This document shows positions 1 to 9,926 of a stretch of DNA of 64,000 bases, piece after piece. Positions within the stretch are counted from its first letter, which is position 1. Each line of letters begins with the position of its first letter. Origin of the DNA: Polaribacter sp. (lineage in GTDB: Bacteria; Bacteroidota; Bacteroidia; Flavobacteriales; Flavobacteriaceae); assembly GCF_036480315.1 (NCBI RefSeq), contig NZ_JAZGGG010000020.1, positions 42,443 to 106,442 on the forward strand. Reading direction: 5' to 3'. The position numbers were made by a program, and so were the translations under genes. The notes beneath the pieces are model-generated. The model searched no databases. It saw nothing but the letters and a program-made list of their open reading frames with translations, and was not told where the DNA came from.

Positions 1-194
1 CAATTAGTCATTATTGGATGTTAGTTTATGGCATAAAATCGAAAAACCGTAAAGAAATCATTGGTCAGATTGTTCGAATTATTGCCTCTCTCCTATTTAC
101 TTTACTTTGGGTTCCTAAAGGAAATACTGGTGGTTCAGATGTTTCATCCATAAAATTAATGCCAATTAGAAAAGAATTGCAAAAATATTTTTAA
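1..194 (+). CDS. DUF3703-like protein, 3' part (truncated by window edge)
   Basis: Manual translation from nt 3: ISHYWMLVYGIKSKNRKEIIGQIVRII...VPKGNTGGSDVSSIKLMPIRKELQKYF*; the HxxML / E-x-x-GQ / GNTGG pattern is recalled as DUF3703. Confidence 0.7.
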   Translation, partial: ISHYWMLVYGIKSKNRKEIIGQIVRIIASLLFTLLWVPKGNTGGSDVSSIKLMPIRKELQKYF

Positions 195-252
195 ATTAAT
201 GCATCTTTTTAAAAGATTCTCTGTCTATTAAGTGAACATTAAAACTAATATT

Positions 253-357
253 ATGAAATATAAAAATGAGTGTACTTGTAATTGTGAAGGTTGTAAAACT
301 GGAGAATGCAAAAACTGTACTTGCGAAAGCTGTACTTGCAATAACTGTAGTTGTTAA
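253..357 (+). CDS. Metallothionein-like Cys-rich peptide (34 aa, 11 Cys)
   Basis: Manual translation MKYKNECTCNCEGCKTGECKNCTCESCTCNNCSC*; ATG preceded by A-rich Bacteroidetes-type initiation region; CxC/CxxC spacing; absent from ORF track (too short). Confidence 0.8.
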   Translation: MKYKNECTCNCEGCKTGECKNCTCESCTCNNCSC

Positions 358-372
358 CTAACAATTTTCTAT

Positions 373-418
373 CTAAACTTGTACAGTTTCTTTTTATAAG
401 ATACTGATACAAGTTTAG
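373..418. promoter_or_regulatory. Inverted repeat between the Cys-rich peptide and the sigma factor gene
   Basis: ctaaacttgta (373-383) / tacaagtttag (408-418), with inner cagt/actg pairing. Confidence 0.5.
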
Positions 419-441
419 TATAATGTATTTTTACAAATATT

Positions 442-981
442 ATGACCACAAAACAAGTTTGGACTTCCTATTCTGAAGATTTAAAACGCTTTATCATCAG
501 CAAAGTAAAAGATATTACAAATGCAGATGATATTTTGCAGGATACTTTTATTAAAATCCACACAAAGCTACATACCCTAAAAGATATTACAAAATTAAAA
601 TCTTGGTGTTTTACAGTAGCAAGAAATTCTATTTTAGATTACTGGAAATCTACGAATCAAACTTTTAAAATTGCTGATTTTGAAGCAGAAACTACAACAA
701 TAGAAAACCAACATACTGAACAAGATTGCCTACGTGGAATTCTTAAAAACTTACCAAAAAAATATAGAGACCCATTATTTCTTGCTGACATAAAAGGATT
801 AAAACAACAAGAAGTTGCTACACAACTAAAGCAGACATTACCAACTACAAAATCTCAAATTCAACGTGCAAGAAAATTGATTGCACAAGGTTTTATGGAT
901 TGTTGTGGGTATGTTTTAAATGATGAAGGAAACTTGGTTGGTGAAATTCAAGAAAAAGACGATTGCAAAGTTTGTAATTAA
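442..981 (+). CDS. sigZ: ECF RNA polymerase sigma factor, SigZ type
   Basis: Region 2 (ADDILQDTFIKIH, WCFTVARN), region 4 (LPKKYR...KSQIQRAR), C-terminal FMDCCG...DCKVCN. Confidence 0.85.
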   Translation: MTTKQVWTSYSEDLKRFIISKVKDITNADDILQDTFIKIHTKLHTLKDITKLKSWCFTVARNSILDYWKSTNQTFKIADFEAETTTIENQHTEQDCLRGILKNLPKKYRDPLFLADIKGLKQQEVATQLKQTLPTTKSQIQRARKLIAQGFMDCCGYVLNDEGNLVGEIQEKDDCKVCN

Positions 982-989
982 AAACAAAA

Positions 990-1027
990 TTTGATCAACT
1001 TAGAGAAAATCATCCAAGTTGATCAAA
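990..1027. terminator. Bidirectional intrinsic terminator
   Basis: tttgatcaactt / aagttgatcaaa inverted repeat between convergent genes. Confidence 0.7.
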
Positions 1028-1032
1028 AAATA

Positions 1033-1722
1033 TTATTCTTTTGATTCAGGTAAATGAATACCTTTTTTTAATAAAGTAAATCCCATTGCAAGTAACCAAA
1101 CTACTTTTACGTGAAATATTGGTTTGTAGATTTCAAAATTATCTGGAATTACTAAAATAATACCCATTGCTATTAGACCAAAAGTTGCTGTAAACCAACC
1201 CAACCAAGTACTTACAATGTTCCATTTTATAAAAGCGTAACCAAGTAATACTAAACCAACACCAGAGAAAATACGTCCAAAACGCACAAAACAAGTTACA
1301 TATTGATTGGTAGATAAAATACTATCCATAAAAACGGCTACTTCTGTAGCAGACATTCCAGCTGTTTTACCAACTCCCCAAGCACCAAAATTATAAAAAA
1401 ACGCATTAGCAATAGCTAGAGTAAAAGTTCCTACTACAACCATTCCAATACCAGGATATATAACAACGTTATAAGGTGCTCCTGAAGTTAGAGGCAATAA
1501 AGCAAACATAGAGATACCCATCGTTACCCATCCAAAAATATGAATACGATACATCCAAATCCAATACCAAACGTTTTCACCAACTTTAGCAAAATCTTCG
1601 GCAACAATATATTCTCCTATATGATGAGATGATAATGCCCAACCAAACCATAGTAATATTGCTGCTAAAATAAACGCCCAACCAGTAAAACTAGTTTCGA
1701 AATTTTTTTTCATTATTCTCAT
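1033..1722 (-). CDS. Hypothetical multi-pass membrane protein
   Basis: 229 aa, about 6 hydrophobic segments; no family recognised with confidence. Confidence 0.75.
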   Translation of the reverse strand: MRIMKKNFETSFTGWAFILAAILLWFGWALSSHHIGEYIVAEDFAKVGENVWYWIWMYRIHIFGWVTMGISMFALLPLTSGAPYNVVIYPGIGMVVVGTFTLAIANAFFYNFGAWGVGKTAGMSATEVAVFMDSILSTNQYVTCFVRFGRIFSGVGLVLLGYAFIKWNIVSTWLGWFTATFGLIAMGIILVIPDNFEIYKPIFHVKVVWLLAMGFTLLKKGIHLPESKE

Positions 1723-1843: not shown

Positions 1844-3064
1844 TTGGATAGAAGATCATTTATAAAAAAAACTGTACTAAGCTCGTTTACAGCTCTTATA
1901 GGAACTGAAATTATCTTTGGCTCAAAAATTATTAATGGCTATACTCCTTTAGCAATCCAAGATCCAAATCCTTTTAAAATGTTCAATAAGAACAAGGGTA
2001 TGGTTGTTTTAAATGACAAACCTTGGAACATTGAGGCACAAGCGCATTTATTAGATGATAAGATTACTCCGAATTCATCAATGTTTATTAGAAATAACGG
2101 TAGAACTCCAGAGGAAATCAATCCAAAAACATGGACACTTACTATTGATGGAGAATCTGCTAAAAACAAAAAAACATATTCTTTAGAAGATTTAAAATCT
2201 AAATTTGAGCATCATACTTATCAATTAACTTTAGAATGTGGTGGTAATGGACGAGGTGAATTTGACCCACCAGCAAAAGGAAATCAATGGACTATTGGCG
2301 CTGTTCATTGTGCTTCTTGGACTGGAGTTCGTTTACGCGACGTATTAGAAGATGCAGGTATTAAAAGTGATGCTGTATATATTGGATACCATGCTGCTGA
2401 TACACATTTAAGTGGAGACCCATCAAAAGAGCCAATATCTAGAGGTTGTCCGATGCCAAAAGCACAACAAGATGAAACTCTATTAGCTTTCGGGATGAAT
2501 GGTAAAGATATTCCTTTAATACATGGTTACCCTTTACGATTAGTTGCTGGTGGTTGGCCAGCATCTGTATCAGGTAAATGGGTAAATAGAATTAGTATTC
2601 GAGACAAAGTGCATGATGGAACAAAAATGACAGGGACAGCATATAGAGTTCCTTGTAATCCAGTTGCTCCAGGGGAAAAAATAAAAGATGAAGACATGTG
2701 CATTATTGAATCGATGCCTGTTAAGTCTTTAATTACTTATCCAAAAACGGGTGCAACTATAAAAGAAGGAAAAACTTTATATATTAGAGGGCATGCTTGG
2801 GCAGGGGAATTAGAAGTTTCAAAAATGGAGTATTCAATAGACTTTGGTTCTACATGGAGCAATTGTTCTGTAGAAAAACCATCAAATCGTCTTGCTTGGC
2901 AACATTTTTCAGCGTCTATAAATTTTCCAAAAAAAGGATATTACGAAGTTTGGGTAAGAGCAACTGATACAAATAGCGTTGCTCAACCAATGCTTCTACC
3001 TGGTTGGAATCCTAAAGGATATTTAAATAATGCCTGTCATAGAATAGCAATAAAAGTTATTTAA
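1844..3064 (+). CDS. Sulfite oxidase family molybdopterin oxidoreductase (SorA/SoxC-like)
   Basis: Tat-like MDRRSFIKK, Mo-ligand ECGGNGR, HGYPLRL and GKW motifs, C-terminal dimerisation domain; TTG start. Confidence 0.92.
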   Translation: MDRRSFIKKTVLSSFTALIGTEIIFGSKIINGYTPLAIQDPNPFKMFNKNKGMVVLNDKPWNIEAQAHLLDDKITPNSSMFIRNNGRTPEEINPKTWTLTIDGESAKNKKTYSLEDLKSKFEHHTYQLTLECGGNGRGEFDPPAKGNQWTIGAVHCASWTGVRLRDVLEDAGIKSDAVYIGYHAADTHLSGDPSKEPISRGCPMPKAQQDETLLAFGMNGKDIPLIHGYPLRLVAGGWPASVSGKWVNRISIRDKVHDGTKMTGTAYRVPCNPVAPGEKIKDEDMCIIESMPVKSLITYPKTGATIKEGKTLYIRGHAWAGELEVSKMEYSIDFGSTWSNCSVEKPSNRLAWQHFSASINFPKKGYYEVWVRATDTNSVAQPMLLPGWNPKGYLNNACHRIAIKVI

Positions 3065-3537
3065 TGAGTAATCAAAAAGAGTTTCAAAAAAAGGTTAAAA
3101 AGGCAGAAAAAACAGCTTATTTCGCAATGTTTTTCGCTCTTATAGCTTCAGTATTACTTCTTTTTGCTGTATACAATCCTACGTTTTCAATTTTTGGAAA
3201 TGACAATTCTAATGTTGTTTATAGTGAGATAATTGAAGATAAAGTTGAAAACGGAATTCACTTAAGAACAGGTTTAATTGACGCTGAAGGTTTAATGACT
3301 GTAGTTAATAATTGTACAAATTGTCATTCAGCAAAGTTGGTTACCCAAAACAGAATGAATAAAGAACGCTGGAATGCAACAATAAAATGGATGCAAAAAA
3401 CCCAAGGTTTGTGGAACTTAGGTGAAAACCAAGAAAAAATTGTAAACTATTTAGTTACAAATTATCCAACTATTGCAAAAGGTAGGCGTTTAAAACTTGA
3501 AAACATTAACTGGTATACATTAGAAAATAAGAAATAA
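3064..3537 (+). CDS. Membrane-anchored monoheme cytochrome c (SorB-like)
   Basis: CTNCH heme motif, N-terminal TM helix, start overlaps the stop of the sulfite oxidase gene. Confidence 0.85.
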   Translation: MSNQKEFQKKVKKAEKTAYFAMFFALIASVLLLFAVYNPTFSIFGNDNSNVVYSEIIEDKVENGIHLRTGLIDAEGLMTVVNNCTNCHSAKLVTQNRMNKERWNATIKWMQKTQGLWNLGENQEKIVNYLVTNYPTIAKGRRLKLENINWYTLENKK

Positions 3538-7017: not shown

Positions 7018-8997
7018 CTACCTTCTCCTCTTTTTGGAAGAACTTCTAGTCGCTTTTTTCTTTCGCTTATTAAAAGGAACAGGAACTGCATCATCAAAAG
7101 TATTCTTTACTTCTTTAGCATTTTTGTTCTTTTTCCAAGAATTAGAATCTGGCAATAAAACTTTTAATAAATCTTGTCTACCTACTTTGTTTAGTGTGTT
7201 TCTAATCCAATCTTTATTTTCTTTTTTATACCAAAAGAAAAATTTATGTTGGTCTTCTCTCTCCTTTTTAGTTTTCGGAGTTTTAGTAGGTTTTAACGTA
7301 TAAGGATGAAATCCTGAATAATAAATAACCGTTGCAACTGTCATTGGTGTTGGTGTAAAACCTTGCACTTGCTCTAACTGAAAGCCCATATCTTTGGTTT
7401 CTGCAGCTAGGTTTGCCATGTCCTCTACTTCACTTGCTGGGTGACTAGAAATAAAATACGGGATCAATTGAAGGTTCAATCTTTTCTTTACATTTATTCT
7501 ATCAAAACGCTCCTTAAACATATGAAAATATTTAAAAGACGGTTTACGCATCAATTTTAAAACAGGGTCAGAAGTATGTTCTGGTGCAACTTTTAATCGC
7601 CCAGAAACGTGTTTTGTCAATACTTCTTCTGTGTACGCATCTAATTCTTTAGGGTCTGCATTCTTATTGAATTCTGGCACCAACATATCATGTCTAATTC
7701 CACTTCCAATAAAAGATTTTTTAATCTTCGGATGTTTATCAACTGCTTGATATAATTCCGTTAAAGGTTTATGAGAAGTATCTAAATTAGAACAAATGAC
7801 GGGCGAAATACAACTTGGGGCAACACATTTATCGCAAATAGATTGTACTTTTCCTTTCATCTGATACATATTTGCAGAAGGTCCTCCAATATCAGATAAA
7901 TTGCCTTTAAAATCTGGCATATTTGCCACTTTATCTATTTCTTTTAAAACAGACTCTTGACTTCTACTCGCAATAAATTTCCCTTGATGTGCAGAAATAG
8001 TACAAAAACTACAACCACCAAAACATCCTCTGTGAATATTTATCGAGAATTTTATCATTTCAAACGCAGGTATTGGTCCACGTTTATCATATTTTGGATG
8101 CGGTAATCTCGTAAAAGGCAAATCGAAAGAACCATCAATTTCCTTTTCGGTCATTGTTGGATACGGCGGGTTTATCACCAACGTTTTTCCTTCTACATCT
8201 TGTAAAATTCTTCTTGCTTTTAATTTATTCGATTCTTGTTCAATTATTTTAAAGTTAGAAGCAAATGTTTTTTTATCATTTAAACAAGCAACATGAGAAT
8301 TTATAGTTACATCTTCCCAATCATTAATAATTGGTAATTTCTCTACCTTTTCATCAACAAAAATAGCCGTTTGTTTAATGTTTTTTAAACTAGAAAACGG
8401 AACCCCTTTTTGCATTAGTTCTACAATTTCACGCAAAGGTTGTTCTCCCATTCCATACACCAACATATCTGCTTTAGAAGTTTCTAAAATAGTTGGCAAC
8501 AACTTATCAGACCAATAATCATAATGTGTTACACGTCTTAAAGAAGCTTCAATACCACCAATTAAAACAGGAATATCCGGGAATTTATCTTTTAATATTT
8601 TCGAATACACAGAAGTTGCATAATCTGGTCTAAAACCTTTATCTCCATTTGGCGTATATGCATCTTTATCTCTACTTCGTTTACTTGCAGTGTAATTAGA
8701 AACCATCGGATCCATACAGCCACCAGTAACACCAAAAAATAAACGAGGTTTTCCTAATTTTTCAAAATCTTGTAAATTATCATTTACACTTGGTTGCGGC
8801 ACAATTGCAACACGCAAACCATAACTCTCTAAAATTCTACCAATTACTGCTGGTCCAAAAGACGGATGATCTACATACGCATCTCCACTAAATAAAATCA
8901 CATCTAATGCTGACCAACCACGAATCTTAACTTCCTTGTTTGTAGTTGGTAACCAATCTGTTAGTTGATGTCTTTTAGTTTCTTGCATAGTTTGCAA
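7018..8997 (-). CDS. ygiQ: YgiQ family radical SAM protein
   Basis: GDAYVDHPSFG N-terminus, CFGGCSFC radical SAM motif. Confidence 0.92.
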   Translation of the reverse strand: MQTMQETKRHQLTDWLPTTNKEVKIRGWSALDVILFSGDAYVDHPSFGPAVIGRILESYGLRVAIVPQPSVNDNLQDFEKLGKPRLFFGVTGGCMDPMVSNYTASKRSRDKDAYTPNGDKGFRPDYATSVYSKILKDKFPDIPVLIGGIEASLRRVTHYDYWSDKLLPTILETSKADMLVYGMGEQPLREIVELMQKGVPFSSLKNIKQTAIFVDEKVEKLPIINDWEDVTINSHVACLNDKKTFASNFKIIEQESNKLKARRILQDVEGKTLVINPPYPTMTEKEIDGSFDLPFTRLPHPKYDKRGPIPAFEMIKFSINIHRGCFGGCSFCTISAHQGKFIASRSQESVLKEIDKVANMPDFKGNLSDIGGPSANMYQMKGKVQSICDKCVAPSCISPVICSNLDTSHKPLTELYQAVDKHPKIKKSFIGSGIRHDMLVPEFNKNADPKELDAYTEEVLTKHVSGRLKVAPEHTSDPVLKLMRKPSFKYFHMFKERFDRINVKKRLNLQLIPYFISSHPASEVEDMANLAAETKDMGFQLEQVQGFTPTPMTVATVIYYSGFHPYTLKPTKTPKTKKEREDQHKFFFWYKKENKDWIRNTLNKVGRQDLLKVLLPDSNSWKKNKNAKEVKNTFDDAVPVPFNKRKKKATRSSSKKRRR

Positions 8998-9036
8998 AAA
9001 TACGAGAATTATAATGGATTAAAACACTTTTTTTAA

Positions 9037-9110
9037 GCAATTTCCTGCTTTCACTACTCGCTTTTTTTGTACCTCAAAAGAGCTCAAACAAACCGTTCAA
9101 TCAGGGCTAG
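9037..9110 (+). ncRNA. Flavo-1-like structured repeat, copy 1
   Basis: gcaatttcctgctttc...caatcagggcta, shared with 24676-24811 and 36316-36473; family name from recollection of the Flavo-1 motif, not searched. Confidence 0.55.
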
Positions 9111-9161
9111 ACTTGTTTGCTAACTTTTAACAAGACCAAAACTATTCTAATTCCTTAAACA

Positions 9162-9926
9162 TTATTTTACAATTAAATGCGGAACATCATCCACATTCCA
9201 ATCAATTACTAAACCACCAGCTAAAGATTTTGCAACTTCTTTGCCGTATAAAAATTCACATAAATACAACGCAGCTTCAAAAGATTTTGCACCTCCAGCA
9301 GATGTAATGTATTTTCCATCATGCACAAACAAAACCTCTTTTCTAATTTCTAATTCAGGGAACATTGTTCTCATTTTATCAATATCACTCGGAAAAGTAG
9401 TAGAAACTTTTCCATTTAACAATTCTGCTTTTGCTAATACAAATGCACCGTCGCAATGAGAAGTAACATAAGTAGCTTCCTTATCAACTCGTTTAACAAA
9501 TTCTATCATAGCAGTATCTTCCAAATCGGAATCTAAATGATGTTCTGCTGAAGGAACTACTAAAATATCAATTTTTGGTAACGAATCTTTTAAATAATTA
9601 AAATCTGGTAAAATTCTCATTCCTTCAAAAGTGACAATTGGTTTGTTTGTATTTGCAACTGTAAAAACATTCATTGCTTTAATATTTTCTCTAAAAATAG
9701 TATGTTGAAAAATATCAAAAGGAGCCGTTAATTCAGTATTAAAAGTTCCGTCCATAATTAAAAAAGCAACATTATATCTGCCTTTTTCTAATTTAGGAAA
9801 CACTTTACTTTGTTTCACTTCTTCTTGTAATTTGTTCTTATCCTCATCACTTTTGGTTTGACAACTAACAATTACAATTATTAATAAAGACAACAGAACT
9901 CTTTTCATATTATGTGTTTTAATCAA
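9162..9926 (-). CDS. DJ-1/PfpI family lipoprotein
   Basis: Lipobox IVSC, SHCDGAFVL nucleophile elbow, ITSAG. Confidence 0.85.
   Translation of the reverse strand: MIKTHNMKRVLLSLLIIVIVSCQTKSDEDKNKLQEEVKQSKVFPKLEKGRYNVAFLIMDGTFNTELTAPFDIFQHTIFRENIKAMNVFTVANTNKPIVTFEGMRILPDFNYLKDSLPKIDILVVPSAEHHLDSDLEDTAMIEFVKRVDKEATYVTSHCDGAFVLAKAELLNGKVSTTFPSDIDKMRTMFPELEIRKEVLFVHDGKYITSAGGAKSFEAALYLCEFLYGKEVAKSLAGGLVIDWNVDDVPHLIVK

Follow-up and report, generated by a model that had tools for sequence, protein, structure and literature searches.

The window analysed here is a 64,000-nt stretch of DNA from Polaribacter sp. (NCBI RefSeq assembly GCF_036480315.1, contig NZ_JAZGGG010000020.1, positions 42,443 to 106,442 of the forward strand). 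Near its start we identified a gene for a 34-amino-acid (aa), 11-Cys mini-protein (positions 253–357, + strand), followed by a gene for a SigZ-type extracytoplasmic function (ECF) sigma factor. We consider it probable that this peptide represents a new metallothionein-like family and that its gene comes first in a two-gene operon with sigZ, which would constitute a sigma-driven sense-and-sequester system. The most likely role of the peptide is that of a small sponge that takes up thiol-seeking metals or metalloids.

The gene starts at ATG253, downstream of an A-rich stretch, and ends with the TAA codon at 355–357, which is included in the coordinates. Its product, MKYKNECTCNCEGCKTGECKNCTCESCTCNNCSC, contains 11 Cys among 34 residues (32%) and no His, and its sole aromatic residue, Y3, lies outside the Cys array. 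Apart from the aromatic residue, these features had been described in an earlier note made from this DNA sequence alone, and they were recovered when we re-read the sequence. In the host genome (3.06 Mb, 29% G+C), we scanned Cys density in all six frames, over 10,688 ATG-to-stop open reading frames (ORFs) with a length of 25 aa or more. The ORF at 253–357 is the most Cys-dense of the genome and the only one with 11 Cys per 34-residue segment; the next-best ORF, a junk-like frame, has 9 Cys in a segment of this length. The binomial expectation for such a Cys density is 2e-5 ORFs per genome, and, together with the genome-wide scan, it rules out a chance ORF.

Homologues of the gene are open across the family. 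In 30 fetched loci, the encoded peptides follow the pattern M-(K-N-x)-E-C-T-C-N-C-x-x-C-x-x-G-x-C-x-N-C-T-C-E-x-C-T-C-x-x-C-N-C-stop, with only three to six residues before the first Cys and with the invariant Cys spacing CxCxCx2Cx4Cx2CxCx2CxCx2CxC. Cys occupies 329 of the 330 cells of the 11 Cys columns, and both TGT and TGC are used in each of these columns. Gly17 is invariant and encoded by all four Gly codons, Thr23 is at least 90% conserved, and Asn and Glu predominate at other positions. The mean pairwise proportion of synonymous differences (pS) in these loci is 0.78, compared with 0.23 for nonsynonymous differences (pN), and the median ratio of nonsynonymous to synonymous substitution rates (dN/dS) is 0.21 (133 unsaturated pairs). 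Codon-position entropy is 1.21 bits at position 3 and 0.54 and 0.63 bits at positions 1 and 2, respectively. The +1 frame shows the reverse pattern (pS 0.23 < pN 0.37), and the +2 frame holds stops. Cys conservation across Flavobacteriaceae, now seen in about 60 of 400 genomes, and a bias towards synonymous substitution were the two signatures that the earlier note had suggested looking for. The segment 253–357 is a genuine protein-coding gene under purifying selection and, because of the codon-level statistics and the lack of an Rfam family at this position, we attribute this selection to the peptide rather than to the DNA or RNA.

In composition, the family resembles metallothioneins as these are operationally defined, with a low mass, about 30% Cys in CxC and CxxC arrangements, few aromatic residues and no hydrophobic core. 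Family-wide, Cys accounts for 33% of the residues, followed by Asn (17%), Thr (11%), Lys (8%), Ser (8%), Glu (7%) and Gly (6%), and His contributes 0.4%. The lack of a hydrophobic core, which the earlier note had read from the single peptide, extends to the entire family, with 1.5% Ile, Val and Leu combined and 0.3% Tyr and Phe.

A six-frame search of 400 sampled Flavobacteriaceae genomes detected the peptide in 60 of them at E<0.01, counting the window's own genome, and one further, weaker match also adjoins sigZ. All matches but one lie in short open frames; the exception, in genome G354, contains one TAG. Named carriers of the module are Polaribacter (the closest, with a sigma factor 84% identical to that of the window), Tenacibaculum, Winogradskyella, Jejuia, Oceanihabitans and Gelidibacter. 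A profile built from 30 peptide sequences yielded no matches in 373 genomes from other Bacteroidota families and none in 338 genomes from 17 other families of the same order, that is, in none of the 711 genomes sampled from Bacteroidota families other than Flavobacteriaceae. Within Flavobacteriaceae, the peptide was not found in any of 36 genomes of one large genus. All these genome sets are samples, and the absences apply to them. The peptide family is so far found solely in (mostly marine) Flavobacteriaceae; the "Bacteroidetes metallothionein" of the earlier note thus holds with respect to a conserved gene of metallothionein-like composition and has to be narrowed to this one family of Bacteroidota.

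The earlier note also supposed that gene callers miss this gene, and the protein databases agree. Exact look-ups among approximately 15 billion predicted proteins found neither the window peptide nor any of 10 family members, and a hidden Markov model (HMM) search of 1.84 billion representative proteins recovered only seven true, unnamed members of the family. A search started from one of the called members, P0004, returned this protein alone, and a word-indexed protein search with a 41-aa, GTG-extended form of the peptide gave no match. We conclude that this is a further case of a conserved gene of about 100 nt that is systematically, almost always, overlooked by gene callers and hence missed by annotation. 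Our literature searches turned up no account of a metallothionein from Flavobacteriaceae, of a Cys-rich SigZ partner or of such a module.

The gene downstream of the peptide gene (442–981, +) encodes a 179-aa SigZ-type ECF sigma factor of group ECF238 with Sigma70_r2 and Sigma70_r4_2 domains. Its best NCBIfam matches are SigZ models (NF007215, 163.9 bits; TIGR02959, 154.2 bits), and it shows the hallmark of ECF238, namely, a sigma-2 plus sigma-4.2 core with a short Cys-bearing C-terminal extension, in this case ending in ...DCCGY...DDCKVCN. In an alignment of 19 orthologues (alignment A2), H91, C96, C154, C155, C175 and C178 are invariant. The tail is of low confidence in the AlphaFold model (predicted local distance difference test score, pLDDT, 56–72), and no anti-sigma-like ORF was found adjoining the sigma gene. 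A second, separate clade of SigZ-like sigma factors (125–163 bits; for example, G204:C1:447593-448114 and G268:C3:344088-344603) occurs in about 49 of the 400 Flavobacteriaceae genomes and is not located beside the peptide gene.

The peptide and the sigma factor are tightly coupled. When the peptide and sigma searches of the 400-genome sample were cross-tabulated, with orthologous sigZ defined by a score of at least 190 bits, the peptide ORF was present directly upstream of sigZ, on the same strand, in all 44 genomes with an orthologous sigZ. Among the 30 fetched loci, 26 carry a SigZ-type gene on the same strand 3–115 nt after the peptide stop, and the products of these linked genes are 45–85% identical to the window's sigma factor; likewise, the peptide directly precedes the sigma gene in 10 of 10 loci from the six genera named above. 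The coupling is asymmetric, with 17 genomes of the sample encoding the peptide and no sigZ ortholog, several of these being incomplete metagenome-assembled genomes (MAGs). In four sigma-less genomes, two of which are at least 94% complete, a search for sigZ at 1e-20 gave no match. The full Cys pattern is intact in 14 of 15 refetched sigma-less loci, none of which contains the ECF promoter described below or a sigZ gene, and most sigma-less copies have terminator-like hairpins of their own. At two of them (L126:1111-1212, −; L133:4042-4143, −), the peptide gene still directly follows icmF, its usual position, and both sigZ and the ECF promoter are gone, which suggests that the regulator was lost independently while the effector was kept. 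The sigma factor was never found on its own, but the peptide sometimes was, so that the peptide appears to be the effector and the sigma factor its dedicated regulator. Otherwise, the sigma-less copies have varied neighbours (two genes of the metallo-beta-lactamase fold, one for a TehB-like methyltransferase and one for an NlpE-domain protein), which offer hints at most.

Upstream of the peptide gene, a −35-like element, TGCATC (200–205, +), followed by TTTTT, and a −10-like element, TGTCTA (222–227, +; family consensus CGTCTA), located 25 nt before the ATG, form a conserved ECF-type promoter. The general form at linked loci is TGC(A/G)TC-TTTTT, a spacer of exactly 16 nt and (C)GTCT(A/T), which is the layout of a classical ECF promoter with a CGTC-type −10 element. 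This bipartite motif is present in all 26 linked loci of the first set and in all 14 distinct further ones, 40 in total (L035 repeats the L024 locus and was not counted as distinct), and in 24 of the 26 the ATG lies 25–28 nt beyond the −10 element. Transcription is predicted to start near 233–236. With a position weight matrix derived from 24 other genomes, the window site scores 40.1 bits and the next-best site of the genome 19.5 bits, a gap that, on present evidence, makes this operon alone the regulon. The motif TGCATC-N15/16-CGTCT also occurs immediately downstream of distant SigZ-like genes in Balneola (where it precedes another Cys-rich ORF), in Heliomicrobium and in two Betaproteobacteria. 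These four sites are half of the eight motif matches in 1.5 Mb of searched strand and provide good evidence that the motif is the promoter of the SigZ-type sigma family. A scan for sigma-70-type promoters returned fewer sites than shuffled sequence, and such a scan is uninformative for Bacteroidota.

Within the 84 nt that separate the peptide gene from sigZ lies a stem-loop (370–422, +), a candidate partial terminator or 3'-end stabiliser, for which the window spacer has a minimum free energy of −22.9 kcal/mol (z −6.6). A comparable hairpin, 5–25 nt after the peptide stop, is present in 24 of the 26 linked loci (−12 to −39 kcal/mol, z −3.4 to −7). Its sequence varies between genera, a T-run follows it in about half of the cases, and in a 10-genus subset compensatory double changes occur in 12 of 19 pairs; the hairpin is conserved as a structure. 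Across ten genera (L007, L010, L011, L016, L017, L025, L026, L027, L028 and L031), the inner stem and loop have the near-fixed sequence TTTAGTAAATTTATACTAA and the outer stem co-varies (alignment A4, columns 24–45). This fixed element, which could be a recognition site for a protein or an RNase, is not found in the window's own hairpin. Directly after the sigZ stop, a terminator-like hairpin (990–1027; 15 pairs in the stem and a T-run behind it, as called on the − strand) closes the operon and is shared with a convergent gene. Rfam searches of window positions 1–1100 returned only chance, miRNA-like matches to the hairpins that fell far short of the gathering scores, and a known riboswitch or small RNA was rejected on this basis.

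Together, these elements suggest the following circuit. The sigma factor would be activated when its Cys/His site binds an ion of a thiol-seeking metal or metalloid, or perhaps a thiol oxidant, by analogy with CorE and CorE2, and would then transcribe its own operon from the promoter at 200–227. The hairpin at 370–422 would end most transcripts after the peptide gene, yielding much peptide and little sigma factor. The 11 Cys of the peptide could then bind the ion in thiolate clusters, and this removal of the inducer would close a negative feedback loop.

Among the known sigma factors, the closest parallels come from Myxococcus xanthus, namely, CorE and CorE2 (formerly ECF44 and now in or near ECF238), and from Bacillus subtilis, namely, SigZ; they also lack an anti-sigma factor and carry a short Cys-bearing C-terminal extension, which the CC...CxxC tail of the window sigma parallels. 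The activity of CorE (Cu) and CorE2 (Cd/Zn) is switched by metal via C-terminal Cys residues (PMC4937300, PMC7826278). In contrast to the putative single target proposed here, CorE and CorE2 act on efflux pumps and oxidases, not on a metallothionein. In the SmtA/BmtA and SmtB systems of cyanobacteria and Pseudomonas, a small Cys-rich metal buffer is likewise encoded beside a dedicated metal sensor that induces it. However, SmtA has about 55 aa, uses His in addition to Cys, adopts a zinc-finger-like fold and shows no sequence similarity to the window peptide, and SmtB is a divergently transcribed repressor of the ArsR/SmtB family, whereas the sensor predicted here is a downstream, co-transcribed ECF sigma factor. 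MymT of Mycobacterium tuberculosis, a Cu(I)-binding protein of 53 aa, is similarly tiny, overlooked by annotation and under a dedicated metal-responsive regulator, but it is unrelated in sequence, comes from a different phylum and is controlled by a repressor. The wiring, in which an ECF sigma factor is apparently co-transcribed with a single metallothionein-like target, differs from the regulation of both SmtA and MymT. Phytochelatins, which are functional analogues, are also poly-Cys peptides that chelate Cd or As, although they are made enzymatically from glutathione, whereas the window peptide would be ribosomal. In size, number of Cys, CxC/CxxC arrays, the lack of aromatics and His, and a filler rich in Asn, Ser, Thr, Gly and Lys, the peptide resembles eukaryotic all-Cys metallothioneins; the alpha-domain of vertebrate MT-1/2 comprises 31 residues with 11 Cys, and the Neurospora Cu-metallothionein has 25 residues.

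To place the sigma factor in a wider context, we compared 13 distant loci with sigma factors 30–40% identical to that of the window. In four of them, the sigma gene is followed by a gene for an ArsP_1 permease (L091:6575-7550, +; L092:6514-7482, +; L052:6680-7762, +; L058:6608-7201, +), and in the two from Betaproteobacteria (L091 and L092) this gene lies behind TGCATC-N16-CGTCT, as does the peptide gene in the window. In a Lentisphaerae MAG, a phytochelatin synthase (L050:6961-7689, +; PF05023, E 6e-39), which is a metallothionein's counterpart among enzymes, is encoded directly after the SigZ-like sigma factor. Methyltransf_31 proteins occur in 6 of the 13 loci (best match 7e-45, as expected for ArsM), and SBF/ACR3 and LMWPc proteins are likewise encoded beside distant SigZ-like sigmas. 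Eight distant loci contain non-homologous Cys-rich mini-ORFs of the CC or CxC type, with 7–11 Cys, directly beside the sigma gene (L054:6585-6707, +; L057:5822-5929, −; L059:2970-3095, +; L061:5828-5944, +; L062:4831-4935, −; L064:5663-5911, +; L069:6605-6775, +; L074:6559-6645, −), in Balneola/Balneolaceae, Vicingaceae, Cyclobacteriaceae, Bermanella and Bacteroidota MAGs; the one in L054 follows a TGCATC-N15-CGTCT promoter. The common theme beside these sigma factors is detoxification of thiol-seeking metals and metalloids, and Cys-rich peptides fill the slot held by phytochelatin synthase in L050. In L057, from a Bacteroidetes MAG, the SigZ-like gene and three Cys-rich small ORFs are also followed by genes for rhodanese-domain and AIR-synthase-related (selenophosphate-synthetase-like) proteins (7351-9407, +), a context that may indicate a link to selenium or sulfur.

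We tentatively extend this picture to SigZ-type sigma factors as a whole, a generalization that is possible and short of probable. Most of ECF238, including SigZ of Bacillus subtilis, might be cross-phylum one-component sensors of thiophilic metals or metalloids, with small regulons serving as interchangeable thiol-based outputs, such as unrelated Cys-rich mini-proteins, phytochelatin synthase, ArsP or ArsM. The Flavobacteriaceae version would then be a minimal self-contained circuit with a single promoter and negative feedback. B. subtilis SigZ, the founding member, has no known role.

Several other explanations of the peptide were weighed. One that we regard as unlikely assigns the peptide a mainly regulatory role towards the sigma factor, as either a mini anti-sigma factor or a co-sensor acting via a shared metal or disulfide exchange. 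The co-occurrence is perfect from the side of the sigma factor (44 of 44 genomes), the apparent regulon consists of the peptide and the sigma factor only, as is typical of pairs of a sigma factor and its regulator, no anti-sigma gene adjoins, and both proteins carry invariant sets of Cys. However, the 17 genomes that keep the peptide without a sigZ ortholog indicate that it works without the sigma factor, known anti-sigma domains are larger and helical whereas the peptide lacks hydrophobic residues for an interface, and the spacer hairpin suggests an excess of peptide over sigma factor, an imbalance more in keeping with an effector than with a stoichiometric partner. The same 17 genomes bear on a very improbable alternative, namely, that the ORF encodes a functionless Cys-rich leader peptide through which scarcity of Cys-tRNA controls the hairpin, and thereby sigZ, by attenuation. 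The layout is indeed attenuator-like, with a short ORF rich in one residue, a hairpin shortly after its stop and a regulated gene, but retention of the peptide without sigZ argues that it is not merely a leader peptide or a sigma accessory. Moreover, the invariant Cys spacing, the conservation of Gly17 and Thr23 and the dN/dS of 0.21 are not what a leader peptide would require, and no conserved alternative antiterminator pairing was seen in a search that was not exhaustive; the leader-peptide attenuator was accordingly rejected.

Somewhat less likely again than a regulatory role, and well ahead of attenuation, is thiol-based buffering of oxidants or electrophiles (such as HOCl, H2O2, quinones or reactive sulfur species) or storage of cysteine or sulfur, with the sigma factor sensing thiol oxidation. 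Oxidation could act just as well on a sensor and an effector that both rely on Cys, in the way known from SigR and its zinc-containing anti-sigma factor RsrA, and a DsbA-like protein (L069), a pyridine-nucleotide disulfide oxidoreductase (L074) and a rhodanese (L057) are encoded near some of the modules. Nevertheless, the neighbours that recur at the distant loci (ArsP, ArsM-like methyltransferases, ACR3, an ArsC-type phosphatase and phytochelatin synthase) are specific to metals and metalloids, and the strict CxC/CxxC spacing with an invariant Gly points to a cluster with a set geometry and less to unspecific, sacrificial thiols. Finally, small Cys-rich peptides are common as precursors of ribosomally synthesized and post-translationally modified peptides (RiPPs), and a radical-SAM/HemN-like gene lies downstream of the peptide gene in one sigma-less locus (L134). 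We nevertheless find it barely credible that the peptide gives rise to a RiPP, a bacteriocin or a similar secreted product, disulfide-rich or post-translationally modified, and rejected this possibility: the peptide has no leader or signal sequence, with so few residues ahead of the first Cys, and no conserved modification enzyme, protease or exporter is encoded nearby, the HemN-like gene being confined to that single locus.

Compared with these alternatives, a metallothionein-like effector under the control of its own sigma factor remains our preferred reading, and a number of observations weigh against it. No Pfam or NCBIfam model matches the peptide at E<=1, including SmtA/BmtA (PF02069) and the other Pfam metallothionein families. 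There is no detectable homology to eukaryotic metallothioneins either, and neither the peptide sequence (E<1) nor, in a Foldseek search, its structural model has a match in the PDB. The earlier note had set the peptide apart from the described bacterial metallothioneins, and indeed it lies outside every described metallothionein family, being a metallothionein by composition with putative metal binding. AlphaFold predicts mostly coil for the peptide (pLDDT 70.5), and the model is silent on metal sites; it is compatible with a metal-dependent fold and proves nothing. With regard to the sigma factor, both NCBIfam matches fall below their cut-offs (212 for NF007215 and 168.65 for TIGR02959), for which reason we regard it as SigZ-like rather than as a SigZ equivalog. 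Its linker contains the invariant H91-x4-C96 (EHTExDCL) and no CxC, in contrast to CorE and CorE2, in which the CxC linker motif is essential (PMC4937300, PMC8999054); this motif is confined to the former ECF44 group (PMC8999054). Given the missing CxC linker and the SigZ scores below the cut-offs, metal sensing as carried over from CorE is an analogy. Furthermore, it is only the co-occurrence of the two that suggests recognition of the promoter at 200–227 by the operon's own sigma factor. The window's hairpin has no T-run directly after the stem, which makes attenuation there uncertain. Lastly, no conserved metal-transport or arsenic genes were found near the module in Flavobacteriaceae.

If the proposed function is correct, the peptide would be the fourth sequence-unrelated family of bacterial metallothioneins and the first in Bacteroidota, and it would reside in abundant marine heterotrophs (Polaribacter, Tenacibaculum and Winogradskyella) that are relevant to marine trace-metal and arsenic cycling. 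It would also provide the SigZ/ECF238 branch of ECF sigma factors with a concrete function and a defined promoter. The compact module of about 800 bp, combining sensor and sequestration under one promoter, could serve as a biosensor or bioremediation part.

The earlier note had placed the peptide gene between a DUF3703-like gene and a Cys-tailed sigma factor gene on the same strand. This arrangement is correct, the 3' part of the DUF3703 gene (PF12487, E 2.9e-21) being located at 3–194 (+), but only the sigma factor turned out to be an informative partner. DUF3703 is encoded upstream of the module only in the window and in two near relatives, and a GbsR-like regulator occurs only in the window and a few near relatives; neither is conserved beside the module, and both were rejected as parts of it. 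The conserved neighbours in Flavobacteriaceae are IcmF, an Lrp-type regulator, a major facilitator superfamily transporter and DUF1684, none of which is metal-related, and icmF and the others reflect shared gene order only. The NCBIfam tally of neighbour genes is dominated by sigma-factor models. Further downstream, and not conserved beside the module, the window encodes, at 1844–3537 (+), a sulfite-oxidase-type molybdopterin oxidoreductase (Oxidored_molyb and Mo-co_dimer domains), the end of whose gene is overlapped by 1 nt by a gene for a small protein with a weak haem-binding match, and this pair resembles a SorAB-like sulfite dehydrogenase.

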